A DNA stretch of 48,915 bases, the filler included, from Dimargaris cristalligena (lineage: Eukaryota), in NCBI GenBank assembly GCA_003614675.1. It is 2 parts of 2 records of this genome, joined end to end, with 100 filler letters (N's around TTAATTAATTAA, not from the genome) between each part and the next. Parts side by side here need not be neighbours in the genome. Positions count along the whole stretch, not along the records: positions 1 to 24,444 come from ML002588.1; 1 more part is not named here. One strand, given 5' to 3'. Shown here in pieces: positions 2,418-38,300 of this stretch (within the stretch, counting starts at the first letter, position 1; the number at the start of each line of letters is the position of its first letter). The notes under the pieces were generated by a model. The model did not search any database and was not told where the DNA came from. It saw nothing but the letters and a program-made list of their open reading frames with translations. The position numbers were made by a program, and so were the translations under genes.

Positions 2418-3241
2418 ACCTGTTAAATTATCTGTCTGAACTTTCCAAAATGGCCAGTATCCATACCATCAAACTCCACAAGGCAGCCATTATTTCTACC
2501 TGGGACATTGGGTACCCAGGTAATCCAGTATCAAAACACCACTATCTCAATATATTTGTGCAAAGCTTGGGCTGTTTAGTGTGGCCTACTGAGAAACCCC
2601 CCATCTGGTGGGTGGAACAGCTTATTGACCATTTGGCCAACCTTCCAGATAATGATGCATTGCTGTGGCACTAACTCTGCCAGAAAGTCTTGGCCATACT
2701 GTGTCTAACAACCATGTGGCGACCTCGTAGTGATTTTTCCTAAGTAACCCTGGATTCTGTAACTTTTCACCAGGAGAGTGACCAGCCTGAGGTCATGACG
2801 ATTACGGCGTACCATGTCAAAGAGGGTAAACGAAAATCGATCAACATCCAGGCCTTGGAAGATAATTCCCGACTATGCCTGGTCCGTAATACCCGGTTTT
2901 ACATTGACAAGTCCTATACCTTCCGTCAACCTAAAGAACAGGCCCTATTCATTACCAAGCGGGGCCATATGGCGTCGGAGGATACTCTGGGTAACTGGAT
3001 CAAATCCCTGTTACAGGAGGCCCAGATCGATACCAACGTCTTTTCGGCCCATTCCATTCGGGCTGCCACATCTACAGCGGCCTACCAACTCGGGTTTAGC
3101 CAGGAAGATATTATGAAAGCGGCCAATTGGCGCGTCTGGACTACGTTTATGGACTATTACAACCGGCCAACTCCGCATAAGAATGTGGCCCGATCGGTCC
3201 TGACGAATTATTCCCATGATAGAAGGGGTAATAACGATTAA
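2250..3241 (+). pseudogene. DIRS tyrosine recombinase (YR), N-terminal half interrupted by stops
   Basis: One frame carries the integrase N-terminal-like segment (TNKAYQYAWQKFAHWC), the catalytic R (WRPRSD, ~2717), H-x-x-R (AHSIRAA), ANW and the Tyr region (FMDYY). There are stops at 2672 and 2741; 2795-3241 is open. The start coordinate is approximate. Confidence 0.88.
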
Positions 3242-12858: not shown

Positions 12859-15800
12859 TTCGCTGGGTTCTCCCCTTTAAATATCACTCGCCAGCCCGTC
12901 CCTCTTCGGGGGCTTTCGTAATGCTTTATCTTACATTTATTTCGAAATTTTGGAATTCCCCTTCCAAACTTTATGGTTTGCGTATTCCCTTTAATGGGCA
13001 ACATCCCCAAGACTTTACCTTGTTTACCCACTTAGTTTTATTTGACCAGACCTTTATCCATTGCTACCTCCATCGTCATTTCTTGGGTGGTCGTTTAGTA
13101 CGTTACCATCCGCCAGTTCTCCAACCTTATTGGCGGTATACTGTATATACTAAGGTAATATCAATTTCTCCATCCCCCCCTCCTTCTTAACCAGCAGCGC
13201 CTTTTAACTGCGGTCGGCACGTTGGCCGTGGCCTGCTATTGGGTCCTTCCCCTACGGCTTTAACTATTGGTGCCGCTTATTGCCTCTCGGGTGTCTTGTC
13301 CCTTAGCCCAGCAAACTCGTTGATTGGAACACACGGCATTGGTTTGCAGTAACCCTCCCACTCGCTTTATTCGCTCACCATTGGTTTATACAGCGTCAAG
13401 TCGCCAAGGTTGAAGTATATCATCCTTGGCTGGTTTAAGCGGCTGTTTCAAGCGAGCTTGTTGTGTATTCGTACTATTTATTCATTTCAACCTTATCCAA
13501 TCCATCCGTTACAAAATTACTCCGTTTTGTAAGTAAGTTTCATGGTGTATATCTTGGAAGTCCTATTGTAAGAGTCACCGAGGCCCGCGACAACTCCCAC
13601 CCTCCTATTTCACTTTCCATTTCCCCGCCCTCGGTTTGGAGTTATGTTACCGATTGTTCGCAGGCTGGCTTGGTGCTGATGGCCTGCCAGGTTGGAAATC
13701 CCCTTTATTACCTATGGGATGGCAATGGACCGCAGGGGTCTCTACGGAATTCCGTAATCCCCGCCCCGTCGCCACCTTCCCATGCGTACATATATATATA
13801 TATATATATGTGTGTGTGTATTTACATGTAATTAGGGGCATTGTTTGAGTTGGATCTGACGTGTGGTATTGGGCTGGAATTCATATGGTACACCACCTCA
13901 GTATCTTTCCATACTTCGGGTTATTCTTTTTTTCCCTAGTACTAGGAAAACGACCCCCCTTTACTATTCTTATTTTATTTTGCACCATGATTTTAGTTTG
14001 ACTGGGAGGGACCTGCCACTATTACTACTATAGGTTCATTCCAGTGACATTTTATTACCCCTTGCCACAGTGTTTCAGGCTTTTTTATATATACTATTTA
14101 CCACTATTGGTCTACTCCTTTCTGGGGGATGTTTGTCAAGCACACTCATGTCATGCCAGTTTTCCTAAACGGAGCTGGCGAGGAACAGAAAAGGTTAATT
14201 AGAGCGGAATGCTGATTCACTTCACCGACTGGACACTAACTTACTTTACAAATTATTATTATTATATTATTATTTGCTTCAAAACTACTCCCTGGCGTTG
14301 TTACTCACAAATCGGGTGATTGATTGGCTGAATACTACCGATCCCTTTGGCAGCTATAAATATCACACACCCGTTTGGCCGGCTTAGACAGACTGTGGCT
14401 ATATATTGGCATCACCCCCTCCCAAGTCGAATAATATAGGCTGTTAAGCACTCATTATTGATCACTTATTCGCCTTTTCCGGCTATCGGTCTGACCTTCC
14501 CGATTCGCTTGCCGGTTTCATTCCGCGGATTTTTCGCCATTTCGGGGCTACTGGATTACCCAAGTAAGTAAGTTGCCGTTTAAAGGCTATTGGATTGTTA
14601 ATTAGGAGGGGTTTGGTTAAGTAAAGTGGTGGTGGTGGTGTTCTCAAAAGGAGGGGGAGGGAGCAGCACAACCTCTGGATAGGACGAGTGGGATGGGATC
14701 GCCGTCAGCCCCAGTGTGCAGCCACACCTAGTTTCTACCCATCTCTGCACCAGGTAAAATCCTGGTTTCCATTTGCCTCTCTCCCTACTCACCGCCCGGG
14801 GTATTTTACAGTGTGCGGGCCAGGGCGCCGTTGCTGGGATATTATACTCTATGGTAGGGCCCCACCACCGGTCGGTGTATAGAATCCCCACCGGGAATAA
14901 TATCTGTAGACCGCGCTAAAGCGCTGGTCAGCTATTCTAATATATACGGTGTGTGTGGTTCAGGGACCACCCAACCAGGGCATACTCTACATTCTAGCCC
15001 CGGTCGCTGTGGGCCAGAGGCCAACAACCCCTCCTCTCCCGTGGTCTCCTTGAGTGTCCCGCACTGTCCCCTGGCGCAACCCTGATGGTGCGTCTCTTAT
15101 CTTAGTAGTGGTGGTGGCCCGACCCGTGGACCTGGCGCGCACATTGGTGTGAGAGAAGGCCCCATTCGAATTATTTTGGTGGTATTGCAAGAAGGAAGGA
15201 AGGGTTCCTAGTTAATGCCATTATGGTTTATATATATAGAGAGAGAGAGAAAGAATTGGCAGTTTATATGGGAAGGAGGTGGTGGTTAGGCTTAGGTTAG
15301 GCTCGGATGGTTGAATAGCCCTCTCCTCATATATACTCTCTCTCCTTTGGTTTGGTTTGGCAGAATAGCCCTGTAGAGGAGAAGAAGAGTAAATAGGGCG
15401 GGGGGAAGGCGCTATTTTTATATACTAACCCTCTCTCTCTGTCCTTCGCTTTTAAGCCGCCGCCGCCGCCACTACTACTATTGTTTGGGCGTTCTTTACT
15501 AAAAGCACTCGATACTAACCTATTCTTTCTATTACTATATCCCTTGCTCGCTCATCTCTTTCTTTTCTTCCGCCATCCCTTCCTTTACTTGATGTACTTT
15601 GGCCGCTGTGGATTCTCTCCTTCACTCCCCCCGCTGCAACCCACTTTCTTCTCCTGCCCTCTCTAACCCACTGCTTCCTCACTCTTCCTCTACCCTACCC
15701 TACTCTACTCTACTCTACTCTACTCTCACCTCTCTCTCTTCTTCTCTCTCTTTCCTTCTCTTCTCTTTTTCTATTTTCTATTAACCCAATTCTTTTTTCC

Positions 15801-15874
15801 ACTTTACTTCCCGCATCTCAACAGGCCTAGCCCTCCTCTACCAGCGCCTGGTTGCTTATCTACCGGCCGTTCGC

Positions 15875-18568
15875 ATGAATAACCCGGCCCCCGCTGATAA
15901 TCGGCCAGAGCCGGTCGCCGACGAGGGTCCATCTCCCCCTCCCACTTCGGCCGCCCCGCCCGTGCCCCATATTCGTTTCGCCCCCCACATCCCCGATGTC
16001 CGCCACTGTCTCTATTTCGAGGCCATGGACCGTGAGGTCCCGGAGGGCACCGTCCTCAAAGTCGGCCGCTTTACCGACCGGGTGAGCCAGCAGCCCAACC
16101 GCATCGCCTTCAAGAGCAAAGTGGTCAGTCGTAGTCACGCCGAAATATGGTCCGAAAACGGCCATTTCTACATCCGCGACACCAAGAGCTCCTCCGGTAC
16201 CTTCCTTAACCACATCCGGCTGAGCGTGGCCAGCGCCGAGTCGCTGCCTAAACGTCTGCACGACGGCGACATTCTCCAGCTGGGCGTGGATTACCAGGGC
16301 GGTATTCAGGACATTTACAAGTGCGTTAAGATCCGCCTCGAAATCAACCGGGCGTGGCAGCGTCAGGCCGAAAACCCCTACCGCATGCGGGTGATGAAGA
16401 ACCTGCAGAATATGTTCAATAGTTTCAACACCGGGGCAGAGGAGCGCCACGAGTGCTGTATCTGTCTGTATGCCATGGGTCCGTTCCAGGCCCTGTTCGT
16501 GGCCCCCTGCTCGCACTGCTTCCACTTCAAGTGTATCAAACCCATCATCTTCACCAACACCGGCTTTAGCTGTCCCCTCTGTCGCACTTTTGCCGACCTG
16601 GAGGCCCCGGTTGAGGAATACGAGAATGACGCCAACGCCCGGGCCCAGGAGCGGCTGACCGCCGACCCCGTGGAAACGACTGACTTGCCACCACCAACAT
16701 CAGACCACCTCGTCTCGCCGGTGCACCGGACCGGTTCCCGTGTCCTTTTGAATCCCCTCCCCGATATTGACCAGAGTCACATGATGGACGTGGACTCCGT
16801 GGCCGCCCAGGTCACCAGCATTAGCAACAACAGCACGCCGCACCGTCCCGACGGATCCGCCCCCCATTCCCATACTAACGCTATGCTGGGCGGGTCGAAC
16901 GGCGACGCCAATCAGGCGACCCCCGTACCCGTCTCCGCCGGCACCGCTCGGACCTCGGCTCCGGGCTCGGCCACGAGCATGGCCGGTACCACCAGCGACG
17001 AGGAATCTACCCCGGGGCACTCTCTGAGTCGCGCCCAGTCGGCCCACCGTACCGTCGTGGCACCCGCTACCCTCAATCCCCACCACCATACGTCTCCCAC
17101 CGCCCAGGTGGCTGGCCACTTTTCCAACATGACCGTCACTTTGCCTCCCGTACCCAATCTGGACGACTCCAGCTCGGACGCGGCTTTTTTATCTGAAGAC
17201 TCGGTCACCGATCCGCTGCCGTCGGGAAACGGGCAGTCGCCCCCCGCGAATCGTAACGGTCCATTTGGCGTGGTGGTGCCCCTGCCCCGGATTCTACAGT
17301 CCGGGTCCAGTGGTATCCCACAGCTGGCCGCGCGGGCGGGCGTTTCCCCCACTCCTTCCACCCCCACCAACACGGCGTCGGTATCCACCTCCCCGGTGAA
17401 CCTACCTCCCCCGTCGAGCCCGGCTCCCCACCACCACGGTCGCCTAGCTTTCCGTATCCCTCCCCTGACGGAGGCCCCCCCTAGTCCTGGCGGGGGTTCC
17501 AATCGACGTCGGGCCCAGTCCTGTTTTACGGAGCCCACCCTCCTTGAGAGCGTGCCGGACTCCCCCATGACCCGGACCTTTGCGGAGGGCCCTCCTGATA
17601 TGGACCGGGTCCCCCCCGGTGTCACCCCACCCCTACCTATACGCGAGTCGAGTCGCTCCCACCAGTCGGGGGCCCAGATGATGACCCCCACCCTCTCCTC
17701 CCCCCTCGCCAACTACCGGCTGGGCCAGGCCCCCACGTCGGCCCTGTCGCCCGGCGTGGCCACCGCTAATGTCATGGCGCGCGCCACTACTAATTTATCC
17801 CCCGCCTCCACTTCCAATCACTCCCATAACCCGGGGGTGGTTCAGCGGTCCGCGCTCTCGCCCTTTCCCCCCACCTCCCCCGGGGCGCCCAATTCCGGTG
17901 GGGTACTCCGCAAATTCCGCCGCCGGTTGTCCGACCACTCGGAATACTTCCAAAATAACCGGGTCGTCAATACCGCCCCACCCGTCTCCACCACCTCCAC
18001 GGCCTCCCCATTGGCCATTGTCCTGAATCATTTGCGCATGGTGGGTCAGCCCAGCTCGAACGGCTCGGCGCGGGCTAATCTGCCGCCCGCCCTGCCCCTA
18101 ACGGGGTTGGAGATGGTGAGTGATTCGGCCATATCTACGCCCATTTCGGATACCTCCTCGGTACCCAACCTGGAGGAACCGCATCCAGCCCAACCCCCCG
18201 GGGCTATTCCCATTCCGACCTCGCCGCTGGCCCGATTGGAAGATGATAGTGGTGAGAGGGGGCATTCCTCCCGTCGTTCCCCCCTGGCGGCCTCCCCCGG
18301 CTCGAGTAATCACGCTTTCCCGACCGATTCCATGTCCCCCGCCTCGTCCGTGGGTGACATTTCTGATCGTAGTGGACCCTCTTCCGGTATCTACTACGGA
18401 GGTGGAGTGGGCAGTGGTGGTAATGCAATAGTAGAGCCTATGCCTCGGTCGGTCAAGAATCTGGCTGCCGATCAGACCTCTGAGCCCGTTGTGCGCCCGT
18501 CCGACAACCACTCCGGTGAACCATCGGTCATGGATACGGATTCCATGCAACCGCCCCGCGGAGACTAG
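15875..18568 (+). CDS. DMA1: FHA-RING E3 ubiquitin ligase (Dma1/Dma2/CHFR-like) with long Ser/Pro-rich C-terminal tail
   Basis: FHA: LKVGRFTD...FKSKVVSRSHAEIW...IRDTKSSSGTFLN...LHDGDILQLG. RING-H2: CCICL...VAPCSHCFHFKC...FSCPLCR. Intronless 897-aa ORF preceded by a CT-rich tract. Confidence 0.9.
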   Translation: MNNPAPADNRPEPVADEGPSPPPTSAAPPVPHIRFAPHIPDVRHCLYFEAMDREVPEGTVLKVGRFTDRVSQQPNRIAFKSKVVSRSHAEIWSENGHFYIRDTKSSSGTFLNHIRLSVASAESLPKRLHDGDILQLGVDYQGGIQDIYKCVKIRLEINRAWQRQAENPYRMRVMKNLQNMFNSFNTGAEERHECCICLYAMGPFQALFVAPCSHCFHFKCIKPIIFTNTGFSCPLCRTFADLEAPVEEYENDANARAQERLTADPVETTDLPPPTSDHLVSPVHRTGSRVLLNPLPDIDQSHMMDVDSVAAQVTSISNNSTPHRPDGSAPHSHTNAMLGGSNGDANQATPVPVSAGTARTSAPGSATSMAGTTSDEESTPGHSLSRAQSAHRTVVAPATLNPHHHTSPTAQVAGHFSNMTVTLPPVPNLDDSSSDAAFLSEDSVTDPLPSGNGQSPPANRNGPFGVVVPLPRILQSGSSGIPQLAARAGVSPTPSTPTNTASVSTSPVNLPPPSSPAPHHHGRLAFRIPPLTEAPPSPGGGSNRRRAQSCFTEPTLLESVPDSPMTRTFAEGPPDMDRVPPGVTPPLPIRESSRSHQSGAQMMTPTLSSPLANYRLGQAPTSALSPGVATANVMARATTNLSPASTSNHSHNPGVVQRSALSPFPPTSPGAPNSGGVLRKFRRRLSDHSEYFQNNRVVNTAPPVSTTSTASPLAIVLNHLRMVGQPSSNGSARANLPPALPLTGLEMVSDSAISTPISDTSSVPNLEEPHPAQPPGAIPIPTSPLARLEDDSGERGHSSRRSPLAASPGSSNHAFPTDSMSPASSVGDISDRSGPSSGIYYGGGVGSGGNAIVEPMPRSVKNLAADQTSEPVVRPSDNHSGEPSVMDTDSMQPPRGD

Positions 18569-20719
18569 TCAATGGGATTTAGAGAAATCATCTGGTCTGC
18601 TGAACCGTATTATCCCTTGTTGACCCTTACAGTCTCTCTCTGATTGTGTTTTCGTTGATATATTATCCTATACGCGGAATATTCCCTTTTTCTTTCAATC
18701 TCCGGTCCATCACATTATCTCGCTACTCTCTGCCCCACATGTATACCGAACGACTACTTCGCTTGCCTTCACTCACTCACTCACTTGTACTCCCTCGTTT
18801 CGATTTATTAGTTCCCTTTTCCTTATATGTTTCTTCAATCTCTTTCTATATAAATCATAATGGTGATTGACATACGAGGTAGCTGGTATTCCCTCCTCCT
18901 CCTTTCATTATTTTTTCTATTCTAAGGTCTATGCTTTTTACACTTGCCGTTTTCTTTATTCTTATTTGATACCAGCCGTGCCTTTCACCGCGTCTTTTTT
19001 TTAAATATGTTTTTGGTCTATTCAGTTGATTTATGGTCAAAATGATCTATATACCATTTAGTCTTGATCAACAATTCCTTCTGAGATGGTGGGTGACTAC
19101 TGCCCCTCCTCATTTTTTTAGGTATATGATGGATGATGGCCTCTCGTTATAAGGTCCCACAGGGTTACTTAATTTTTCATGTTTTATTATTTCCCTTTTT
19201 ATAAATTCGCCTAGTTGCTCCCTCCGGTCCTTCTAAAGCTTTATTATTATTACTATTATTATTTTATTTCGACACTTCGCCCTCTTCATGCTACGTTACC
19301 ATTCCGACTAACTAGCCCCATTCTCGCATTCCACCGCCACCACCGCCCTCGCCACCATAATGTCTCTGTTACATTATAAAGGTCATTTGTTCCCCACTCT
19401 TTATTATTTTTTATATCCATTTCTTTTAACTCCTCCCAGCCCCCGTACTCACCACTTCCACTATGAATTCATCGCTTGATTTTCTCTCGGTATACTGGCC
19501 ATTCGATATCAACGATATCCCCCGTTTTTCCACCTCGGGGTTTACGTATTATTTGACTGTGTCATTGTATCACTTTACAATAAACCACTCGCCCAAGTTT
19601 TACCCCTTTATTATATTCTCTATTATCAAAAAAATGGGAGGTATTGTTCGGCGGGGAGATAGCGTTCATGGTCGGCGTATTATTAGGCTGGAGAAGAGAA
19701 TGCATTCGTTACATGTGAATGGAAGGGACAGGGCGGCTAAGTTTAGCACTATTCTTATTCCGCTTCGATATTTCCCAACCTTTTGGAATTTCTTTACACT
19801 AAGCCAATTCGACCCGTGATCGTAGCGGGTGCCTGTGTCACTCGGCTTACTGTATACTCTGGTCACTCGATCTTCCAAGATGATTGAGTAGTTCATTGAA
19901 CCCATTAATCATTCGTGATTTGCATTGACTCTCCCTTAAAGACCATTGTCTACCGCGTATTGATGACATGTGATTGTCCACCAGGGATTCTCTAGGGTTG
20001 GTGTAGATTTTAGTATGGTTTGAATCGTCTATTCCATCAAGAGTTCCGCTATTTTACTCGTGTATAGATTCCCGGACGGTGAAGGAAGGGTTCGTTTAAG
20101 TCGCACAACCGTCAGGTGTCTATATTCTTATAACCACTCCCCCAAAACCTTGTATTTCCAGATAGGTGGGGGAAGAGGATTGGCAAGGAGGTGGGGGGAT
20201 ATAAGGGTTAGAGGGTAATATAAAGGGGAAGAGGGCGATCATTAATAGTCGGGGTTCAATTATTAGTGTCACATGATCTTCTTCCTATTTAGATGCTAGA
20301 TGCTCTAAGGCTACCTGACTATGAGGTTGAGGTAACACATTTTGAACACAGCGTCACTGATATTATCTGGGCCGGGGTTATCAAAGTTGACTCGGGTCAG
20401 CAATGCTCTGTAATTATTCTGCTCATTGATGTTAGGATAAACCGGATATATTAAATGGGTGCCATCTATATGGTAAAAACTATTGGGATTATTGTATGCC
20501 AGTATATAATAAGGATAAGTGCACACGTATTATATTTTACCTCTTCCTACCGGAAAGTAAAGATTTTCTCTCCTCGATTCTATTTGTTTACCATACCATC
20601 GTTTGTTTCATACCACCACCGCTAGTTACTACCCATTTCCATTATTCTGTCGGGATAGCCGTTTCTATAGCCCCGGCGCAATTGTCTTGTTTCTCACCCC
20701 ATTATTTCATTGAATTACC

Positions 20720-22093
20720 ATGCGATTAACTTGGCCAGCGGTTGTTGCGCTTATCCTCGCCACCGGGTTTGAACACTCGATGATCGGCGATGCTTCACCT
20801 ACTCCAGCGAAGGGTAAATATATGGGCTCTACCGGTAAATTCCGTTCTTCCAACGCGGGGATTATGGAAATATTAAATGCGATCCCAGCCCACTTGGACA
20901 ACAGCTTAAAATGTCAAGTATTAATCTCTGGCAACGATTACAAATCGACTCACGCGCATAGTAAGCCGAGCTCTAGCGAATCGCCAACAACGCGATTAGT
21001 GAACTCGGCTGACGGCCAACTGGATAGACCCGGAAGACTAACGAGTGCCAACGATAACTCGGACTCGTTTCAGGCAGGGTCCGAATGGACCATCGGGAGT
21101 TGCCCAATGAATGGATTTACTTCTTCAGTCGGAATCCACTGGGAAGGCAATGAACCTCCATCGGCTGACTATAACGACGACGTAAGAAACTCGGCCCAAG
21201 ATAATACCGATACCAATGATAGCTTCGACTTGTTTCAGGAATGGTTAGGCGAGACAATCTGGGGAGGCCCAAGTGCTGATCTACCTTCTTCGGTCGACAA
21301 TAACGACGCAGGAAACTTGGCCCAAGACGATACCGATGCTGATATCGTTATCGATGATAATAATGGCTCGTTTCAAATATGGATAAATGAGACCATCTCG
21401 GGAGACTTTAGTATTGGACTCTCTTCTTCGGTGGACAGCGATGGTGAAAGCTATTCGGCTCAAGTTAGTACCGATGTAATTAAAACAGATAAGCCACCCC
21501 AACCAATGATTAGTTCCGAAGGTTCGGCAGCCCCGTCGGGCGGCGAAGAGGTGCGCAGAAAAGACTCCCAAGCTCGCTATATGTTAAACCGTAACCTCTC
21601 ATCCGGCCAATACACCAGATGGGACCCCACAGCTATGCTTGTGGATGGCTATACTTCAATAGGTATCTGTGAGGCTTGTTCCCGATGTATCCCCGGAAAA
21701 CAACGCGATATACATCGGGAATTCCACCAATCCAGTTGGGGTGTAATCTGCCCAAAATGTAAGGGACTGTTTCATAATGAACATGTACTAAATCAACATA
21801 CACCAAGTTGTCACCCGGAATTAAGCCGCAAATACAGTGTGCCATTCAATCAACGTATTCTTTCCCCGAGTGATTCTGAATGCCAATCCGCTGTAAAGTT
21901 TGGGTGCTGCCGCCACTGTCAGTGCAGTTTTGAAAATCAACAGGGTTTGCGTAGGCATCTTTCGGCAGAGTGTAGAACTCTTAAGCTGCAGTGTCCAGAG
22001 TGTCATGGAAAATATTCTTCGAAATCTCTTTTAAAAGCACACATTGAGTATGGGAAAACTCAATCGCTTTTGAACTGTGCCGATAATAAATAA
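20720..22093 (+). CDS. Putative secreted protein: signal peptide, acidic internal repeats and four C2H2/C2HC-type zinc fingers
   Basis: N-terminus MRLTWPAVVALILATGF...DASP is signal-peptide-like. There are three imperfect D/N/W-rich repeats. Fingers: CEAC..H..H, CPKC..F..L..H..C, CRHC..F..L..H..C and CPEC..Y..L..H. Intact 457-aa single-exon ORF. Confidence 0.72.
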   Translation: MRLTWPAVVALILATGFEHSMIGDASPTPAKGKYMGSTGKFRSSNAGIMEILNAIPAHLDNSLKCQVLISGNDYKSTHAHSKPSSSESPTTRLVNSADGQLDRPGRLTSANDNSDSFQAGSEWTIGSCPMNGFTSSVGIHWEGNEPPSADYNDDVRNSAQDNTDTNDSFDLFQEWLGETIWGGPSADLPSSVDNNDAGNLAQDDTDADIVIDDNNGSFQIWINETISGDFSIGLSSSVDSDGESYSAQVSTDVIKTDKPPQPMISSEGSAAPSGGEEVRRKDSQARYMLNRNLSSGQYTRWDPTAMLVDGYTSIGICEACSRCIPGKQRDIHREFHQSSWGVICPKCKGLFHNEHVLNQHTPSCHPELSRKYSVPFNQRILSPSDSECQSAVKFGCCRHCQCSFENQQGLRRHLSAECRTLKLQCPECHGKYSSKSLLKAHIEYGKTQSLLNCADNK

Positions 22094-23893
22094 GCGTGGG
22101 ATACCTTTCCGGGAAACCCATAGCTCGAGAACAAAAGGTAATAGAAACCGAGCCCAGCATAAATTAAATCTACTATTTTCACTATAAAAAAAAAAGAAAT
22201 ACCCGTACGCTTTATTATAATGGGTTACTGCCAGAAGAATATGGAGGGTTTGGTATTGAGGTCAATTGAGGTTGATAGTACTTATCTGCTATGCGTGGAA
22301 TAAGACCCTGCTGTATCAGGTTGCCGATGGTGTGTATGAGAAGATAGGCGATATATATTCTTTAAGCAGTAATTTGAACCTCACCCAATTGATTTTTTGA
22401 TATATGCCCCAGTTGAATCTCCCCCATACGTTGGAATATAAAACTTTACGGTCTTTGTTGCAGTGATTAGCCCCACATAACCCACCAGGGGTCCACGCAG
22501 ACAGGCTTATATTGGATATATTGCCGGGTGGCATCCTGGCTAACATTTACTCACTGGGAACATGTGGTAGAAATAGCACATTACAAAAAATTATGCCAAA
22601 GCACGCTTACTAATTATAGGACATGCGGCATTGGGCGTATTAGACTGAACTAGGGAGGGCATACGCTGGAGATAATGGGCTGTAAATTGGAGGATAGGCA
22701 TACGCAATGATTGTGCTAGAAGGTCATCCTTGAACGAATGACAGGGATACTGGCCACCAGCCGCTGATTGTTCATTAGCCCATCACCTCTCACGTTTTTC
22801 TAATGGTATACTCTAAGGTTTCATAAATAAAATATTTTACCAAGGTCGCACAAATAATTCCGTCTAATCAGATGGCACCTTTGGTTAAAGTCCATGAGGA
22901 CTGGCTTGTTCATTTTTTTTAAAAAATAAGCCTTAATTTGAAAAGTAAATCTACCATGTTGTCGGACCATTTAAGCTGAGGCCTCTTCAATGTCGACTCA
23001 TTCATTTACTATTGTTACACTCTCCTTGGTTTTCTAGATTGTTGTACTTATAATGAGTCTGTACTAGTACCTGGCACAAGAGAATAAGACAAACAATAAT
23101 TTAAACACGCCCCCACCGGTAGGTGAAAGTGGTATTGCCTGGTGGGCAACTTTATTGGTTTTTGTTTTTCACAAAAGGACAAATCCATACATGTCATATC
23201 TACGTCTATTTAGAGTCGGACAAGCGGAAACGGCCAAAGTAGCATGTGGTGTGGGGCTTTTATACTAGGGATAGGTAAAAACATATCGCCGTTAGGCTAC
23301 ACAAGGCATACACAAGTATGAACTGCCAGTTAACTGGAATGTTCCATTGGAAAAAAATGGATATTGAAGCTAAACTGAAAATGTGCCGTATGTAAGGGTA
23401 GAAAAAAGATAAATAGTCCAAGGTTACCTGATCATGCGGTTTAAGTAACACACTTCGAATACAGTATCACTTTTTGTGGCTGGGCTGTTTGCATCACACG
23501 GGAGCTGTTGAAGTAGTGCCTCGTGATTCTTCCATTCAATTTTGCACGAATAAGACGTTAATATCAAACGGGAGTTAAATTTATGGCCATATACATCTAC
23601 CGAGGAAATTATTCAAGTATATAGCAAGGCTAGCCGCACTCCGGCCTTACTAACCAAATACAACTCTCCTGCCCAGAACTTTGTATATTTTGTCTTACTG
23701 ATTCTATTAGTTCCCTACACACTCCTACAGTCCATACCTTCACTGTTAATTACATGTTTTTATTATTTGGCTTTGCTAAAAGTTCTTAACTGAAATGTGG
23801 GCTCTATAAACCATTCCTGTTTTGTTACATTACCTTGCTTATATTTCCGGCATGATTTTTATAATTTTTTACCCATTTCGGCATAGTATTGCC

Positions 23894-24160
23894 ATGTGAT
23901 TAACTTGGACAACGGTTACTGCGCTTTTCCTTGTCCCGGAGTTGAGCCACCCAGTTTTTAGTGGTGCTTTGCCTGCTCCGGTGGAGGGGAAACTGCCAAG
24001 TTCTACCGATACATTACATTCCTCCATCACGTGGGTGATGGGAATGATGAATGAGGACCCCGCCAACTTGGACAGCATGTGTTGGGCCGGTGGTTTGAGG
24101 AACCTCTCTCCCGGGACTAGGGCTGGGGCTGAGCCCCGTGCTATGCTCGGGAGTGGATAG
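23894..24160 (+). pseudogene. Nonsense-mutated paralog of the N-terminus of the 20720-22093 protein
   Basis: ATG TGA TTA ACT TGG here versus ATG CGA TTA ACT TGG at 20720. Translation M*LTWTTVTALFLVPELSHPVFSGALPAPVEGKLPSSTDTLHSS..MMNEDPANLDS aligns without gaps to MRLTWPAVVALILATGFEHSMIGDASPTPAKGKYMGSTGKFRSS..ILNAIPAHLDN. Confidence 0.8.
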
Positions 24161-24444
24161 GTCACCGGACGTCGGGTTTGGAGGGCTCAAGGGACCTAGG
24201 TGGAACATACCGAATTCGGGCAGCGGTCCTTCGGCGATACGGATGGGATCGGAACTGTGCTCGGAGGCGGTACTGGGGTACGGTGGAATCAACTCCAGGT
24301 TGATGGATCCTATGCTCCCATCGCCAGAGTTTGGACGATCCACGATGGCAGAGTTTTAACAGAACGGTCGAAGGTAAAACGATATGAGGTAACTAGTAAA
24401 AGGTGAAATCTTGACCTCCGGTTGAGGTCTTCGATTACTGCTGG

Positions 24445-27088: not shown

Positions 27089-29971
27089 CTATCCGTAGGT
27101 TGACGAACCTCGGCATTCCCAGATGACATCGCCTCCGCCCAGCGTAATATCGCCATCCTGGCCGTAGTGATTGAACGATGTAGTAAATGCGCTGGAATCG
27201 GAAAATGGGGCTGCCCAAGGAGGTCGTGCACCGGATAGACCGGGTCTAGGATTATCTCGCGATGCGATGGCGCGGGTCTGGATAGCGGATCCCATATTTC
27301 GCCGATTGCCTAGAGGGGTGGTGGGTGTTGGTAAATGAGCCGATGGGGTGGTGGAAGTAGAGGTGGAGGCGGTGGTGGCAGTAGCGGTGGTGGAACCGGA
27401 GCCCCAGGCATTCCCGCCCGCATTTGGACCATTCCGCTTATTCCGGCCTGGGGTTTTCCATTTGCCACGTCTTTCGGGGTTTGCCCGTACTTTGGTGGAA
27501 CGGCGATGGCTAGCGGGTCCACTGGCTCTTCTGTCCCTTCCCCGCCCCGTCGCTGGGGTTGAAGTGTGTTCATGGCAAGGTACACCAGCGCTCACAGTCA
27601 GAAATCCCGGTGGGGGGGCTGAGTTGCCTTGTAAGACCGTGTCCGAAAAAAAGGTGCTACCTAAATCGCCCCGGATTTTACGCTTGGCTCCCATACATAG
27701 GATAGCGTCGTTGGGGGTGGGGAGCTGCAACGGTGGGCCTGTGGGGTTGGTTGGGCGGTCCCTTGCCGAAGATGGGGCGGCTATCGAATCGGACGGGCCC
27801 CGGCTAGGGGCGGGCCTTCTAGTGACCGAGCGCCCACGGCCGGTTCGACGTGACCCTCGACCGGTTGACCGAGTGGCTTTTTTGGGCTGGCAATCGAACT
27901 GGCGGAGGTAGTTCAGTAACCCGGGGTCGGACTGCCCGTTGGATTGGAAATCCATAATACCCTCGACCGGGGAGGTGTAGCCAGCTTCATCGTCGGAGGG
28001 TGAAGCCGAGTCAGTTTGGCTGCCTTCATCTTCGGTGGCACTGCCGCCGAGATGATTGCATATCCGGTGCATATCCTCCAAGGCAGCAGAATCGGAATCC
28101 GATTGGTCTAAATCAATGACCTCGGTAGCGGGTGAACGGGCGGTTGGAGGGCCCGGAGAGACGGGGAAATTACGCGTATAGTAGCCCGCTTGAAGCCAAG
28201 GGGGCACTAATGGGCCGTCGCTGGGGGACGATGTGATGTCAGGCAGTACGTCCGGGTCTTGCCTACGTAGCGCCAAGGCCGCGGCGGCCGAATCATAGGT
28301 AAACTGGGTGTAAGCAATGTCTTCCTCGATATCTTCGCAGTGGCTTTCCGCCTGGTTATCGCGCGAGGAAGGTTTGTCTAACGGTGTGGATGGTTGCCGG
28401 CGACTCGTAGGGCCAGCGACGGTCCCACCTTTGTTCGACAATGCTGAGATCGAACTAGGTGTAGCGGCGGGTGCACATTGAGTCAGCCCTAAACTGGACT
28501 GGTCAAAGTCGAATTCGAATTCCACCAAATCGTCAGCAGAACTGTTATCCGGGGGGTCAGCGGCTAATTCACCCTCGTCGGGCCCACTAGAGGGATCGGT
28601 GGGGTTTGAAGGTGGTTCAGTATCTGGGTAAGAAAATCGGAAATTGTGCGGAGCCAAAAGTGAGTGAGGAGTAGCGGGAGGTTGCAGTGGTCGCGGTGGT
28701 TCGGTTAGACAGGGTTGTGGCGTTTGGCCGGGGATCTTGAAGGCGGGGGAACTGAAGTTCACCACATGTTTGTGAACTTGACGGATCCTACCGGTCATCA
28801 AATGGTGGGCCGGCGTAGACGGTGCTGACACGCCCGGCCGAAGAGAATTGCAGGCGGGAAGAGATTGCGTATTCAGCAGTTTCGCCAGTAGCCGAGACGA
28901 CGCCCGCGGCAACCCAGATTCTCCGGGAGACTTAGGTGCTACGTGTCTACTGGATCCGTTGAATGGAGTCTGTCCTCGGTTTGACGGGTATTTCGGGGCA
29001 ACGTCGGACTGGAAGGGATTGACCAATTTCGGGAGTGCTGGCTGGTTGGTCAATAACTCCCGAAGGCGTTGTGCCTCGCTAATAGACCCATGGTTCCGGG
29101 GCCCTGGGCTAGGTCGGGTATGTGGCGGAGAGTCTGTAACATCGGGTCCTTGACAGTCCGATGCGTGTGACTCAATAATTGACCGCTCAAATAATCGATT
29201 ACAAAGAAGACATGTGATGCTGCTCAATTGGGCTGGGGCAGATTGGGGGGTCTTTCGGGGCTCTGGGAGTATATCGTGGCCCACGTGCGTAGAAAAAAGG
29301 GATGTTGATACGGGTGACGGTACGGGTAGGATACGGGCCGATCGGAATGATTGGGGAGTACTGCAAGCTGACGAATTGGCGGTTGATAAGATCGGCGATG
29401 AGTCAAGTAGTGGGGTGATGCTGTCACTCAGAAAACGGGGAGAAGAGTACAAACCAGGGTCAGACGGCGGTTCGGGCGTCGCTCGTAGGAGCACTTGGCT
29501 TGTTGTGGTACCGTTGGCCATATCAGTGCGCACCGGGGAATTTCGGTCAGCTTGATAGCCGTTCACATCGGTCAGTTGACTATTTCCAGGGGAGCAGTCA
29601 TCATCGTCTTCAATAACGAAGTTATCCAATGACGCTTGGGGCGCCGAAACGGTTGAAGAGGGCCCGGTGTTTGACGCTAACCAGCTCGTATTGGAAAGGG
29701 GTAGCTGTGGGAGGGCCGACGTAGGGGAAGGTAGGCCTGTGTTAGCTGTGGCTGAGGTGGGCGTGCTCAGAGGTGGGGAACGGGGTCGAATCGGACCGCC
29801 AGGTGATCGTCGGTACCGGCAACCTGGGGACCCAATCGTCGCCGAGGTGGCTGAGGTTGTTGGAGAGTGTTTCGCTGGAGACGATCGAAGAGAATGGGGC
29901 CGGCTGCTAAGACGGGGTCGCTTGGACACGAAAGAAACGGGCTTAAAGTCGGACTCTTCACTATCACTCAT
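27089..29971 (-). CDS. Large intrinsically disordered protein with a UBZ4/Rad18-type zinc finger
   Basis: 960-aa single-exon ORF, S/P-rich. It contains CLLCNRLFERSIIESHASDC (C-x2-C...H-x3-C), an acidic tract and Arg/Lys-rich NLS-like stretches. Confidence 0.7.
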   Translation of the reverse strand: MSDSEESDFKPVSFVSKRPRLSSRPHSLRSSPAKHSPTTSATSATIGSPGCRYRRSPGGPIRPRSPPLSTPTSATANTGLPSPTSALPQLPLSNTSWLASNTGPSSTVSAPQASLDNFVIEDDDDCSPGNSQLTDVNGYQADRNSPVRTDMANGTTTSQVLLRATPEPPSDPGLYSSPRFLSDSITPLLDSSPILSTANSSACSTPQSFRSARILPVPSPVSTSLFSTHVGHDILPEPRKTPQSAPAQLSSITCLLCNRLFERSIIESHASDCQGPDVTDSPPHTRPSPGPRNHGSISEAQRLRELLTNQPALPKLVNPFQSDVAPKYPSNRGQTPFNGSSRHVAPKSPGESGLPRASSRLLAKLLNTQSLPACNSLRPGVSAPSTPAHHLMTGRIRQVHKHVVNFSSPAFKIPGQTPQPCLTEPPRPLQPPATPHSLLAPHNFRFSYPDTEPPSNPTDPSSGPDEGELAADPPDNSSADDLVEFEFDFDQSSLGLTQCAPAATPSSISALSNKGGTVAGPTSRRQPSTPLDKPSSRDNQAESHCEDIEEDIAYTQFTYDSAAAALALRRQDPDVLPDITSSPSDGPLVPPWLQAGYYTRNFPVSPGPPTARSPATEVIDLDQSDSDSAALEDMHRICNHLGGSATEDEGSQTDSASPSDDEAGYTSPVEGIMDFQSNGQSDPGLLNYLRQFDCQPKKATRSTGRGSRRTGRGRSVTRRPAPSRGPSDSIAAPSSARDRPTNPTGPPLQLPTPNDAILCMGAKRKIRGDLGSTFFSDTVLQGNSAPPPGFLTVSAGVPCHEHTSTPATGRGRDRRASGPASHRRSTKVRANPERRGKWKTPGRNKRNGPNAGGNAWGSGSTTATATTASTSTSTTPSAHLPTPTTPLGNRRNMGSAIQTRAIASRDNPRPGLSGARPPWAAPFSDSSAFTTSFNHYGQDGDITLGGGDVIWECRGSSTYG

Positions 29972-32900
29972 ATCGTGACAGAAGGCTAAAAACTATAGCC
30001 GCCGATACGGTAACCGAAGTAGAATGGAGCGAAAGGAACGTGTTATGTTTGTATATAAGAACGATATTGTTATTGAGGGCAAGGGCAAAATAGGAATGAA
30101 ATAGAATGGGAGGCGGAGAAGGGAATCTCAGACAGTTTATTCTTCCTTTTGAGAGGTTACTCGCAGTCTCAGTTAATGGCGACTGATTGGCTGTTTTTTT
30201 TAAACAGCGACTGGTTAATTATTGTTTGGATCCACACAAATGGTCAATAACTAAATCATTATAGAGATGAGCACAGTTCGGAATGGTAAATTGGGCTGTG
30301 GGACATTAATATGAGGCGCAGGGCAGCCCAGAATCAGCGCTGCCCGCATAGATAAGCAATACCAGCTAATCTAAAACCAGTTTGGGGGCACTTGGTAGTG
30401 TAAAGGCTCTACCAAGAGATTGAACGAGTATACTATGTATCTATACAGCGTCGGGGTTGGTAATTTAAATCAATAAAAGGGCACTGGCAAACCTTACATT
30501 CACGAGAAAAAGTGCATTGCTGTAATAAGTCTCGGGATAAAAATGCTCAGCGTCAGTGGATGGTTGATACAGATACGGAGTAGCTAAAATTGGCATGATT
30601 TACCACATTCCAGACCCACCTCTTTATCCAAAGATTAAGTGAAATGGGCCTGCCTTAGTTAGCCAACTCAGGCAGTCCATTTTAAGAAAAGGCAGCCGGG
30701 GAAAAGGAAGTGGGCATATCCCTAATCCAGTCCAGCCCCCCTCCTCCCAAAAACATGACGGTCGGTAGCGCGCGACAAGAAATATATACGTTAAAGTGGT
30801 GCATGTAAGAAACGAAAAATAGTTATTTAACATGCCGGCAGTTAATATAAAAGAGAAACTACGTGTCCAGGTGCTTTAAAAGCTAGGAGAACTTAGACTG
30901 GAATTAACTACATATAATTAGGGATGGATGTAGATATGGGTCAGGGATGAGTGATTAAAAAGGTGTAGGTATGTGGTATACCTGAAGGGGCTAGACCAAT
31001 ACAAGCACTTTGGGTGTAGGAATACCACCTGTTAAATAGAGGACTAATTGAATAAGGCTCCATCTATCAGGTGTAAAATGTGGTACCCAAGCCTTTGAAA
31101 ATCGGGCATTATTAATGCCATGCAGGGGAGTCTGCCCCATTAGAACCAGGCACCTCGTTGCCGTTCCCTTTTTAGACTTGCATATGCCATATCTCGGTTC
31201 TCCTAATAACACCCCAGCCCATGGAGATGGGTATAAGGCTTCCGGGCTGATAATTGGAAGCCCATTCCTGCCTACCCTTACCACTGATTCATATATGCTT
31301 CAGTTGTCAATGGTGTCTCCCGGTTATCGCTTGGCGACCTTCAGCACCTGCCAATCTTATTATTATATACTGCTCCAAATGGTGGTTGTCGTAATGGTAT
31401 CTATCACTTGGATTCGGAGACATTTATCTCAGTTTATGCCTAATATGGCCAATCCTTTTATGTGACTACCCCCTGTTTAGTGCCTTCATGTAGACACGCC
31501 TGTTCCTAAATCTGGAATTTATCTTCACTACTAACAAATACCAGTAGATAGTTATCCCTAGACTAGGCGGTTCTCCTATCCAATGGTCCCAAGCGCAACA
31601 TTAGAGTGGTGAACCATTCGAGAATGCATTGGTCCGCCAGCCTGGCACTGGCGAGTTGAACATTGGAGGTTGGTAAAGGTGAATATATTAGCAAGGGTTT
31701 AACGGGCTACCTGACTAATACAGTGACTAGTGGAACAAACTGCTGAACGGGGCGACTCTTGTCCATCACTTGCTATTATAGCCAATCGCTCCCATGTTTC
31801 CTTAATACGTCCATAATAGTTTGTGATTTCTTAGAGAAGGGCAGTTAATTATATACTATACCCCCATTAACTACGATAAGCAGCTCAACGGGGTTTGGAA
31901 CATCCACTTGGAGCGACACAGCCAATGCCACAGTTAGACTAGAGGGCTGGTCGCTAACCCTTGTATTTTGTGCAATTCCCCCACCAAAGGGCAGTGAGAT
32001 TGGGCGACACTTGGTCCTCAGCAGGAGAAAAACGAAGCGAGAGGTAGGAGAAGGAAGCCTCCATAGGGGACTTCAGCTGTACATGCTTTGAACTGGTGGG
32101 TCGCACTGCCCCGCCGCTATCTCGTAAAAGAGCATGAATTCATACCGCATGGCCGGTATTTGGGCCGTGTAGGTCCAAAGACGGTACCACGTTCTACACG
32201 TGAACACAAGCGAGGTTTGCCTTGTTCGGCGGGAAAGGGAGGATTATACTCGGAATGCGCACTTTGTTACGGTTGGTCAGCTATCATACGAAAGCATTGG
32301 CCGCTGTATGATTAGGGAAAGGGGGGTTGATAACCGAGTTCTCGATCCCATTTTTCCCTGCACCCTGCCATTCGACGAGCTCAAGTCGGGTGTGGGATCC
32401 GCCTTTGAGGCCTCCAAAGGCTGCTTTAGCAAACCTTGTAAAAATATAATCCTCAACGATAGCCAATTCTTTGCACGTCCTTTGTATCACCAGCGAAGGG
32501 GGCCATGGTAGGTCTTGGCGATGAACATGGCCTCCTAGGGCAGGGTGTACAGTCCCCAGCCCCATCGATACTCCTTGAAAAAGATACCAAAGGTAAAAAT
32601 ACAACAGGGTGACTGGTGGACTAAAATGTGAATATCCTCGACGACACAGTCCGCTGGTCTGGGGATACAATAATATTCGACTATGAGGAGGTTGGTGTCG
32701 AGTGGCCGCACCATAACCAACCTCTGTAAGGCGAGGACCCCCGTTTACCGTTTTCCGTCTGCGGGAAATAGAAAGTAGGTTTTGAATACCTGGCTAATCG
32801 ACTGCTGTCTCTTTTGAATATAAAAAGACCCTTATCCCCCCCTTTCATTAATCAACAACTCTGTCAACACACTGTTCTATTATCCGTTCATTATCCTATT

Positions 32901-35398: not shown

Positions 35399-38300
35399 CT
35401 ATATGAATTTTAAATCCTTGATTTGCCTAACGTTGATGTAAACCATCCTTCTGCGATATTTTATACAGGAAAGTACTGGCCAGTGTGCCCCGATTCTTTT
35501 TAGAAACCACAGGATGGAAAACCACGTAACAACCCTAAACCCGGAGTGACAATTAGCTAACACCATTTCCCTAGGTAAACCCCGCCCATTAGAATAGCCC
35601 GCTGGAATATATATATTTTTACTTACTTCTCATTTTTGAATACCCGCCAGTAATGGTCCGTGTAGTCCGACCGGCCCAACAGTTCCACAAACGATTCATC
35701 GTGGGTAATCACAATGAGCTGGAAATTATGCTGCTGCCGGCGCGCCCGAATAATATGCGACAGGCCGTCGGCCAGACTCTCAATGTTGGCCTGGTCCAGA
35801 TTCGTGGTGGGTTCATCGAGGGCTAATATGCCGCAGTTAGTCCCGAAGGATTCGGCGAGGCCGAGGCGGATGATTAGGCAGGCCAATACGCGCTGGCCGG
35901 CACTGCTACGGCCGCGCATGTCCAGTTCGATACCCTGTTTGATCATGACCACCTTAGGTATATTAACATCGAGGTGTCCCATACGGGCAATGTATAGTGG
36001 GTGTTACTACAATGCAATGGCGGAGACCGGGTATCCAAACACAAAAATCAAGTTGATCTCGGTTTCAAGGTAAACCAATGTTGCCACTAGCATTTAGCCT
36101 CCTCCAGTATACCATACCGAAAGGCATACAGTCCAGTTGACACACCAAAGTCCAGAAAACGAGAGGTTATGATACAAAACCAGGCATCTAATGAATCGTC
36201 TCCCATAAGTACATCTCACTTACCCGATAATTATACGACCGATTACCCCGCGCATTTTCGCAATCCGACCGAATCTCAATCGTATCAATATCGTTTCCCT
36301 GGTACGTGTGCATCCACAAATCACGGATGATCTTATTAATTTCCGCCATTTTCAGGGAATGGAATTTCATAATGGCGGTATCGAGGGCCTTGGCGTATTT
36401 GTCCAAATCCTGGTTGGCCAACTCGGTGGTTTTGAATTTGATCAACTGGTCGCGGAATTGGGTGTCCACGTTGGGGAAATCGGTGTCGAGTTCCATCCGG
36501 TACTGGCGGCGCTGGGCCTGGAGTTGTTTCATCTCCCCCTGGATTCCTGCCCCTTTTGCCGTGAGGGCCGCGTGTTCCTCCTGGAGGGCCGCCAGCTCGG
36601 GTTCCCAGTCCGTCGTGGGATTGTCACCCGGGCGGTGGGCGTGGTTTCGGGAGTGTCCACTGATGTGGGCCTGCGCCGTTTCACGATGCTGGGCTAGAGT
36701 GGCTTCCGTTTCCTGGATTTTCGTTTCCAAATGGGTTATCCGATCGAGATACTCGTGGTATTCAATATTATCCCGGAGTTGCTTCGTAAAGGCGTCTAAA
36801 TCCAGGGCCCGGCGGTCCAAGTCGGCCAAGCGGTCCGTATTGGCTGCCATGTCTTCCTCACACTCGGCAATGTGAGTCTCGATTTGCCCAATTTCGGCCA
36901 AGCAGTCCCGAAGGTGGTCCGCTACCCCATCCTGGATGAATCGACTTAATCGATCCCGGATAGACCGGATCGTAAGTAGATGTTCCGACAATTGACGAAG
37001 GTCTTCTTCGGCCGCTTCCTCCGCCGTGCGAGAACTCTCACGATGCTGGTTTAATGTTTCCCGCTCAACCAGTAGTTGCTGGTTACGTTCAGTTTGCTGG
37101 AGTTGTAGATTCTATTTCAGAAAAAGACCAGTGTTGATCGTATATGTAAAGACAGATACCAATCGCCATTTGTAACATAGTCCTTAATATTAAAACTACT
37201 AGAAACCTGTATAGTGATGATGGACTATATTTCAGCATGGTATACTAGTTACTTTAGCGATTAAAATCGCATAGTGCCTACCTTCAGCTCGCCGCATAAT
37301 CCCTCGAGATCCCGCTGAGCCAATGCTGATTCGGCTTCGAGCTTTTGGCGTTCAACCAGCTGAAACTGGAGGGTCTGGAGATTTTGTTCGACTTGTAGTA
37401 TCAGAATCTTTAGACTTTGGTCTTTCTCCTGCTGGCTAACTTGGTCGCGGTTTAATTGTGCTAGTTTATGTTCCAATGATTTTCTGTAATTTAAAAAGGT
37501 TGGTGGATAGACAAAGGTGTAGTGGATAATTGTAGTTATGAAGTAGATGGAAGTCGAGGTTAGTTGAAAGTGTTGTTAAAGTGGATAAATAAATATATAT
37601 ATATATACAGGGTCTTGGATCTGGATAGAGCTTTACAAGGTAAATTATGGGTACTTACTTTTCAGCACTGGCAAGCTCAGCTTGCGACTGACACTCGTCG
37701 AAGGTGAGGGTGCTTCCCGATGATGCCAGCTGGGCCTTCAATTTATCGACCTCAACCTGGGTGTTATTTACGGCCCGTTCCGCCGTTGCCAGCCGGTCAC
37801 CAAGGCTGACGAGTCCTTCCAGTGCCGAAATACGTGTTTTGGCACTTCCGATTTTGTCATCCAACTAAGCAATATGTATCAAGGAGATGACCAAACGATG
37901 GTCAGGGCATAGATATTCAGGGTCATATATATTAAACAAGGGAAAGTGCCAAGCCGATTCGCACGATTAGTGTAAGGTAGGCTAACCATTCAGGAGAATT
38001 CGATCATGTCGACCTTGGCATAAATTGAACTGAACCCAGAGAACTGGACTGTATATTTATAAATCACGAGTAAAAATTGGAATATCAGGTTTCCAAATCT
38101 TACCTCGGTGGTTTGCTGGACAATCTCTTCTAAAGACAGTTTGGCCCGTTCCGCATACGACTGGAGTACCAGTAGTGTCCCCTTATTCTTTGCAAACTCT
38201 TCGGCCGCTGCCTTCCCGGCCTTCATACGTCGAAGGATACCTTGGATTTGGTCCAGTTCCGTTTCTAATTTGACTGTCTGCTGAGGGGAACCAATCAATA

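Follow-up and report, generated by a model that had tools for sequence, protein, structure and literature searches.

A candidate effector gene of unproven function in Dimargaris cristalligena: a signal-peptide-like leader, acidic repeats, and a partly eroded C2H2-type array in one open reading frame

Can a protein apparently made for the secretory pathway also carry a zinc-finger array and, if so, what might it do? The question is raised by an open reading frame (ORF) at positions 20720-22093, plus strand, of a 48,915-nt stretch of DNA (hereafter, the window) from the fungus Dimargaris cristalligena (assembly GCA_003614675.1). The predicted protein of 457 amino acids (aa) starts with a hydrophobic leader, continues with acidic repeats, and ends in C2H2-type units. 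A preliminary description, made from the sequence, had proposed an exported, transcription-factor-like protein acting inside a host nucleus. Our tentative preference goes to a different reading, that of a young, species-restricted, chimeric, and dispensable gene of the secretory pathway, i.e., an effector candidate of unproven function.

Coding status and layout of the open reading frame

The frame runs without interruption from the ATG at 20720 to the stop codon at 22091-22093 (included in the coordinates), and the stop-to-stop frame opens at 20714, just two codons 5' of the ATG. At the base composition of 19000-24079, with a per-codon stop probability of 0.057, 459 open codons are expected by chance with a probability of ~2e-12, and the runner-up open frame in the same interval has 129 codons. 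Hence, the ORF is a real coding sequence, or was one until very recently, and the intact 457-aa frame described earlier stands. The deposited protein, BJ085DRAFT_32216, is shorter (319 aa). Its residues 1-314 are identical to those of the ORF and are followed by VVTRN and a stop, because a 145-nt GT..AG intron predicted at 21663-21807 shifts the frame and removes all fingers.

The leader consists of MR, LTWPAVVALILATGF, and EHSMIGDA, followed by SP; its hydrophobic stretch is 15 residues long, with a Kyte-Doolittle maximum of 2.51 (11-residue window). By inspection, the parts of a signal peptide are seen: Arg2 in the n-region, a hydrophobic h-region, a polar c-region, and small residues at -1 and -3. 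Ala25 (position -1) is the same in all three copies, i.e., the ORF, its paralog BJ085DRAFT_32130, and a pseudo-copy in the window, while position -3 is occupied by Gly, Ser, and Ser, respectively. The hydrophobic stretch, the invariant Ala25, and the small residue at -3 agree with the (-3,-1) rule and with an n/h/c layout, so that the leader is signal-peptide-like, with likely cleavage after Ala25 (GDA/SP). Both the hydrophobic leader ending in DASP and the central acidic/aromatic repeats of the preliminary description are thus borne out, the latter by composition and by shuffle tests.

Residues 111-255 contain 29 Asp and Glu, only two Lys and Arg, and 13 Trp, Phe, and Tyr, and are made up of three diverged repeats of 42-55 aa (R1-R3). 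The similarity of the repeats is reached in 1 of 2000 shuffles for R1/R2 and in 0 of 2000 for R2/R3; for R1/R3 (83 of 2000) it is marginal. At the DNA level, Tandem Repeats Finder reports no tandem repeat in 20500-22300. In composition, the region resembles an acidic activation domain, being net acidic with interspersed bulky hydrophobic and aromatic residues. A search of the ESM Atlas with residues 1-300 gave nothing usable.

The tail of the protein, residues 316-457, holds 15 of the 17 Cys and 10 of the 15 His residues. It contains four cores of the form CX2C-X3-hydrophobic-X5-[LIVMD]-X1-2-H, a number reached in none of 20000 shuffles of the tail. The units (F1-F4) depart from the classical finger to a different extent. 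F2 (344-365) is canonical, CX2CX12HX4H, and is the only unit that follows the ligand pattern CX2-4CX12HX3-5H; F1 (317-336) has the X11 spacing, CX2CX11HX3H; F3 (397-418) has Cys as the fourth ligand (C2HC); and F4 (425-446) has no fourth ligand, with Lys in place of the last His. A fifth unit at residues ~368-392 is dead, with its Cys pair and His gone, and lies opposite a whole finger of other proteins in a ten-row alignment that we built from C2H2 proteins. Here, all four units are in register with classical fingers and the ligand columns are invariant; the linkers inside the finger pairs have 6-7 residues.

An exhaustive HMMER search over 1.84e9 representative sequences (E<=1e-3) yielded 18 matches, 16 of them generic multi-finger C2H2 proteins aligned to residues 315-455 (best E 3.2e-8). 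AlphaFold2 (AF2), run on residues 300-457 with the ten-row alignment, predicts four beta-beta-alpha units, with a mean predicted local distance difference test (pLDDT) score of 71.3 and block values of 74-89, and a disordered segment at residues 375-392 (pLDDT <50). The confident finger fold leans on this alignment, as a full-length run with only the paralog aligned was unusable (mean pLDDT 28.6). Foldseek against PDB gave 423 matches at E<=10 and 23 at E<=1e-3, with Aart, PRDM9, ZBTB24, and CTCF at the top; among the matches listed, every one is a multi-finger C2H2 array, and global TM scores are low (~0.2), as expected of flexible arrays.

The Pfam scan for zf-C2H2 (PF00096), which had been put forward as a check on the fingers, did not bear them out: only F4 was scored, as one stretch at residues 424-442, with 16.1 bits against the gathering cut-off of 25.2 (E 0.016), and zf-C2H2_4 reached 15.8 against 27. 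The C2H2 ancestry of the array is clear. At the same time, its sequence shows signs of partial erosion, and present-day binding of zinc or DNA is putative. Thus, of the four C2H2/C2HC-type fingers described earlier, the four cores stand, while several of the units lack canonical ligands and the Pfam scores stay below threshold.

A Dimargaris-only family and a null allele

Only two of the 18 HMMER matches cover the N-terminal part of the protein (~270 aa), namely its own deposited model and BJ085DRAFT_32130, both from D. cristalligena. The latter protein (256 aa) is 54% identical to the ORF product (E 8.9e-59; best stretch, residues 1-193). The alignment extends to the AAPS motif (~residue 273), beyond which this protein ends in an unrelated tail of 19 aa; it lacks one of the repeat units, and its gene model has no fingers. 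Compared with the three frames of 21501-22100, this tail gives local scores of 27, 37, and 27, values that have no significance control, and no clear match. A homologue search with the 457-aa ORF at near lengths returned its own model only (1 of 4381 candidates). A search with residues 1-110 of BJ085DRAFT_32130 returned this protein alone among 17 candidates; it missed the positive control, BJ085DRAFT_32216, and hence is uninformative.

The nearby paralog sharing the leader, noted earlier, is real, although it is a pseudogene fragment. The protein match covers 23894-24076 (39% identity over 61 aa, E 4.7e-7). The copy begins with ATG TGA (23894-23899), so that its second codon is a stop, and this is unchanged in a second sequence of the region, described below. 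It lies 3.2 kb downstream of the ORF start and is cut off at ~24080, exactly where a high-copy repeat begins. A block of 55 nt upstream of both the gene and the pseudo-copy may represent a promoter element common to the two copies of the duplicated unit. Judging by sequence similarity, the first ~270 residues belong to a small Dimargaris-only family, in which one tandem copy is a pseudogene and at least two members are open.

The second sequence comes from a DNA run of another study under the same organism label (X5), in which a contig of 8391 nt, with a depth of 192, covers 20000-24108. Relative to the reference, it shows 18 substitutions and, at 20210, a deletion of 20 nt. Six differences fall in the ORF, with no indel: Q66*, A97A, R106G, C128Y, M130I, and T134P. 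The first of these, C>T at 20915, replaces Gln66 by a stop codon and creates a null allele. The substitution density in the ORF (6 in 1374 nt) resembles that in the flanks. Five of the six in-ORF differences are nonsynonymous, with nonsynonymous sites making up 78% of the ORF; the probability of five or more is 0.61 under neutrality, 0.05 at a dN/dS ratio (omega) of 0.2, and 0.006 at omega of 0.1. The dN/dS of the leader against the pseudo-copy is 0.92. The GC content at third codon positions (GC3) is 0.446 for the whole ORF and 0.359 for the finger part, and the flanks have a GC content of 0.39-0.41; GC3 of the conserved genes on the same contig is 0.73 (FHA-RING), 0.78 (HSP20), and 0.66 (Myb-like). 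The change seen between these two sequences appears neutral.

Competing readings of the gene

If the gene is indeed a young chimera of the secretory pathway, the leader would direct the protein into the endoplasmic reticulum, and cleavage after Ala25 would be followed by release at the parasite surface or at the haustorial interface. The acidic repeats would be the shared working part of the Dimargaris-only family, while any binding of zinc and nucleic acid by the fingers would require that the protein reach a reducing cytosol or nucleus. By its sequence, the architecture is chimeric, with an acidic-repeat part of ~270 aa, found in Dimargaris only, joined to a partly eroded C2H2 array of ~140 aa. 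The picture of a young, fast-evolving, and dispensable gene fits a birth-and-death family of effector candidates and a drift towards loss equally well.

Several points weigh against this preferred reading. The six in-ORF differences are compatible also with omega of 0.3-0.5 (P 0.13-0.31). They all fall in codons 66-134, and the substitutions are unevenly spread, with 11 in 20365-21119 and then 0 in 21120-22545 (1426 nt, including 452 nt past the stop codon). A gap of this length is seen in only 152 of 20000 random placements, and the 143-codon finger part is still open (chance ~2e-4), with no differences between the two sequences. The difference-free stretch hints at either recent constraint or a shared haplotype block; we lean towards the block, as the stretch reaches beyond the ORF. 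Further, Q66* may come from another isolate or another haplotype, and thus a functional copy may coexist; another haplotype may be involved since the reference genome is suggested to be non-haploid in PMC9866270. Should the annotated intron be genuine, the product would be fingerless, and the word "chimeric" would then be true of the DNA alone. Finally, the secretion reading of the leader was made by inspection of the sequence.

The foremost alternative, which we regard as unlikely, is that the ORF is non-functional: a recently inactivated or never-functional chimera at an AT-rich, gene-poor contig end that is still open because too little time has passed. The Q66* allele would then be expected, and so would the nonsynonymous character of five of the six differences, the dN/dS of 0.92 against the pseudo-copy, and GC3 about equal to the GC content of the flanks; the eroded fingers, the adjoining pseudogene copy with the repeat insertion, and the N-terminal part with no homolog outside the species in the HMMER search point in the same direction. 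However, 457 codons are open despite the local stop probability of 0.057, the ORF of X5 has no indel, and four finger cores are still intact. Moreover, BJ085DRAFT_32130 has an open frame and is still 54% identical over ~190 aa, the alignment having few gaps; this argues for past selection on the protein.

Less probable again is an effector of the host nucleus: the haustorium would secrete the protein, a fungal host would take it up, and in the host nucleus the fingers would bind DNA while the acidic repeats with Trp and Phe would activate host genes. The lifestyle is suitable: according to PMC9866270, the order of D. cristalligena parasitises other fungi by means of an appressorium and a biotrophic haustorium, and the species is a haustorial mycoparasite, in agreement with the parasitic early-diverging fungus assumed in the preliminary description. 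There is also a precedent. C2H2 fingers, said there to be unexpected on secreted proteins, are indeed rare in this context, but MoHTR1-3 of Magnaporthe oryzae are described, in PMC10189765 and PMC9645283, as secreted nuclear effectors with a signal peptide, a nuclear localisation signal (NLS), and C2H2 fingers, which enter rice nuclei and reprogram immunity genes.

The protein itself gives a mixed answer. A signal-peptide-like leader kept in three copies, a C2H2-type array within the same ORF, and the acidic/aromatic composition of residues 111-255 are all consistent with such an effector. Effector genes in an arms race typically belong to families confined to one lineage, with pseudogenes, null alleles, and a predominance of nonsynonymous change, all of which are seen here. 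Against it, a regular-expression search of the 457-aa ORF found no classical basic NLS, the longest basic run being RRK at 279-281. Ligands are eroded in two of the four fingers, the spacing is odd in a third, one further unit is dead, and the Pfam zf-C2H2 score is below threshold, while the deposited model and the paralog model both are fingerless. The N-terminal 270 aa match just one paralog, from the same species, and the tandem copy is a pseudogene. The null allele Q66* implies that the gene is not required, and the five nonsynonymous differences of six, together with GC3 near the GC content of the flanks, also speak against this role. For MoHTR3, in contrast to the 457-aa gene, PMC10189765 reports high conservation among strains. 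Thus, the proposal of a host-nucleus effector was a reasonable one, but the new evidence has lowered its likelihood.

Its most specific form, by analogy, would be a fungus-to-fungus counterpart of MoHTR proteins or of transcription activator-like (TAL) effectors, exported to the host, with the array addressing host promoters and the acidic repeats recruiting the host transcription machinery. An arms race with the host would then have left its marks in Q66*, in the tandem pseudogene, and in the predominance of nonsynonymous change. We consider this version quite improbable.

We are equally doubtful that the deposited model is correct, with the 145-nt intron spliced out, the product being a secreted acidic-repeat protein of 319 aa, and the fingers an untranslated relic. 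The intron has canonical GT..AG ends, GC3 is lowest in the finger part (0.359), and the paralog model (256 aa), likewise fingerless, stops a short distance past the AAPS motif common to both. However, the intron sits within in-frame finger-coding DNA, and splicing would cause a frameshift with a stop after five codons. Fungal intron donors usually have G at position +5. Since the four finger cores run on in the unspliced frame and the donor, GTATCT, does not have this G, we think that the intron is mis-predicted. The model is also a product of automated annotation: according to PMC6784888, the JGI pipeline served to annotate the genome co-assemblies, and the main text of that paper makes no mention of a transcriptome. 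The five sequencing runs listed for this stretch are all of DNA, none of RNA.

It is very improbable that the protein serves the fungus as a conventional C2H2 transcription factor of its own, intracellular or tethered to a membrane, with a hydrophobic N-terminus other than a cleaved signal peptide. Such factors are usually built from an acidic activation-type region combined with a C2H2 array. However, the hydrophobic stretch here has ~15 residues, lies at the extreme N-terminus, and precedes a conserved small-x-Ala site, features more in keeping with a signal peptide than with an anchor of 20 residues; the conserved part of the family is the leader with the repeats and not the fingers, and no orthologous transcription factor is found in the HMMER search of 1.84e9 representatives.

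Genomic setting and known systems

The features of the locus are collected in Table 1. The gene and its flanks (20000-24079) are single-copy in the reads, while the contigs of all three runs break at 24079/24080, with many different loose ends or left flanks. The repeat at 24080-24444 has no match in Pfam or Rfam. In the whole window, a repeat search with a minimum length of 60 gave 0 families and 0 inverted pairs, and Rfam at gathering thresholds gave 0 matches.

Table 1. Features of the gene, its tandem copy, and the adjoining repeat (positions in the window).
Feature	Positions	Strand	Remarks
55-nt upstream block	20304..20358	+	78% identical to 23417-23471; ~420-480 nt 5' of the gene and of the pseudo-copy
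Full ORF	20720..22093	+	457 aa; chance openness ~2e-12; residues 1-314 as in the deposited model
Leader, residues 1-25	20720..20794	+	Hydrophobicity; Ala25 invariant and -3 small in three copies
Ser/Thr/Lys-rich N-terminal segment, residues 26-110	20795..21049	+	Common to paralog BJ085DRAFT_32130; holds the Gln66 codon, 20915-20917
Three acidic/aromatic repeats, residues 111-255	21050..21484	+	R1 21050-21214, R2 21215-21358, R3 21359-21484
Linker, residues 256-316	21485..21667	+	PMISSEGSAAPS motif, the last part in common with BJ085DRAFT_32130
Predicted intron of the deposited model	21663..21807	+	145 nt, GT..AG
Finger pair F1 + F2	21668..21814	+	F1 317-336, CX2CX11HX3H; F2 344-365, canonical C2H2
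Dead finger remnant, residues ~368-392	21821..21895	+	Aligned opposite a whole finger; disordered in the model
Finger pair F3 + F4	21908..22057	+	F3 397-418, C2HC; F4 425-446, CX2CX12H, Lys for the last His
Tandem pseudo-paralog of the leader and first 61 codons	23882..24077	+	70% nt identity (E 2e-17), 39% aa identity
High-copy repeat, ending the pseudo-paralog and the contig	24080..24444		Depth up to 5253 vs 192 in X5

The Pfam scan of the context covered 71 of the 82 open frames of at least 100 codons. The other 11 are the ORF itself and an FHA-RING ORF, both of which were scanned separately, and nine frames overlapping the latter. Domains of the transposable element (TE) type are present in two of the 71 scanned frames, ~18-20 kb from the gene; the remaining Pfam matches on the contig of the gene belong to ordinary genes (Myb-like, HSP20, and FHA with RING). 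Accordingly, the "TE-rich island" of the preliminary description is weak: the two frames exist, but they are remote, and the gene with its flanks is single-copy. The setting is better described as an AT-rich, gene-poor contig end beside a repeat. A TE-derived origin of the ORF was rejected, because the reads show it as single-copy and no TE domain is present in it.

The two TE-type frames contain RVT_1 at 864-1247 (+; E 1.2e-10) and a Phage_integrase tyrosine recombinase at 2744-3238 (+; E 1.7e-8). Together they look like a degraded retroelement encoding a tyrosine recombinase, which we take to be DIRS-like. The FHA-RING ORF at 15785-18568 (+; 927 codons; GC3 0.73) contains FHA (E 1.3e-13) and RING (E 1.2e-11), the ubiquitin-ligase layout known from checkpoint proteins. 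The segment 24445-24544 consists of N44, TTAATTAATTAA, and N44 and looks like an artificial linker with stops in all frames. The deposited contig that carries the gene has a length of 24,444 nt. Genes past 24544 are not demonstrable neighbours of the ORF, because the window most likely is two joined contigs. On the second contig, an open frame of 967 codons at 27089-29992 (-), set in a GC-rich stretch (0.55-0.58), has no Pfam match at E<=1. Frames following one another over 35626-41778 (-) match AAA_23/SMC_N (E 3.6e-33) at one extreme and SbcC Walker B/SMC_N at the opposite one, and resemble a Rad50/SMC-type ATPase gene interrupted by short introns.

If the host-nucleus role were true, a secreted activator-type zinc-finger protein would extend the idea of nuclear effectors from plant pathogens to fungus-fungus parasitism. 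At present, the locus is of value as a concrete, testable effector candidate, as an illustration of a young chimeric gene for which a null allele occurs as well, and as a probable annotation problem, the 319-aa model cutting off an in-frame finger array. Effectors of biotrophic early-diverging mycoparasites are essentially uncharted. In the literature on Dimargaris and on nuclear or zinc-finger effectors of mycoparasites, no such protein was found among the matches listed; the supplements of the genome papers may hold secretome lists.

Among known systems, classical C2H2 proteins (CTCF, PRDM9, ZBTB24, Aart) share with the 457-aa protein the CX2C-X3-F/Y-X5-L-X2-H cores, linkers of 6-7 residues, and the predicted beta-beta-alpha fold. 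In contrast to them, the array of the ORF is fused to a signal-peptide-like leader, scores below the Pfam threshold, and contains the X11 spacing in F1, Cys in F3, a missing ligand in F4, and a dead unit. TAL effectors of Xanthomonas have a type III secretion signal and bind DNA by repeats of 33-35 aa with repeat-variable diresidues. The parallel with the 457-aa protein is conceptual only: the idea in both cases is that of export, a DNA-binding repeat array, and an acidic activation domain combined in one protein. Membership in the TAL-like group was rejected, as the repeats here are 42-55 aa long, acidic, and just three in number, and the HMMER search gave no TAL-like match.

MoHTR1-3, compared with the 457-aa protein by description only, are similar in the N-terminal signal peptide (here, signal-peptide-like), the C-terminal C2H2-type fingers, the origin from a fungus capable of biotrophy, and the lineage-restricted gene. 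No match among the 18 from HMMER bears the name MoHTR, though most of these are unnamed. Unlike MoHTR3, described as small and as conserved among strains (PMC10189765), the Dimargaris protein is not small and its gene has a null allele; it also differs from the MoHTR proteins by three acidic repeats, an array of four to five units, and no NLS in the regular-expression search, and its host would be a fungus rather than a plant.

The likeness to birth-and-death families of effector candidates is seen in the restriction to one species, the pseudogenised tandem duplicate, the adjoining repeat, the null allele, the mostly nonsynonymous change, and the AT-rich, gene-poor setting. Unlike typical small secreted proteins of such families, the 457-aa protein is larger and carries a module of the nucleic-acid-binding type, its secretion being putative. 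As an effector candidate, the gene is legitimate, if unproven; a lineage-specific candidate with a DNA-binding-type module is a variant on a known theme.

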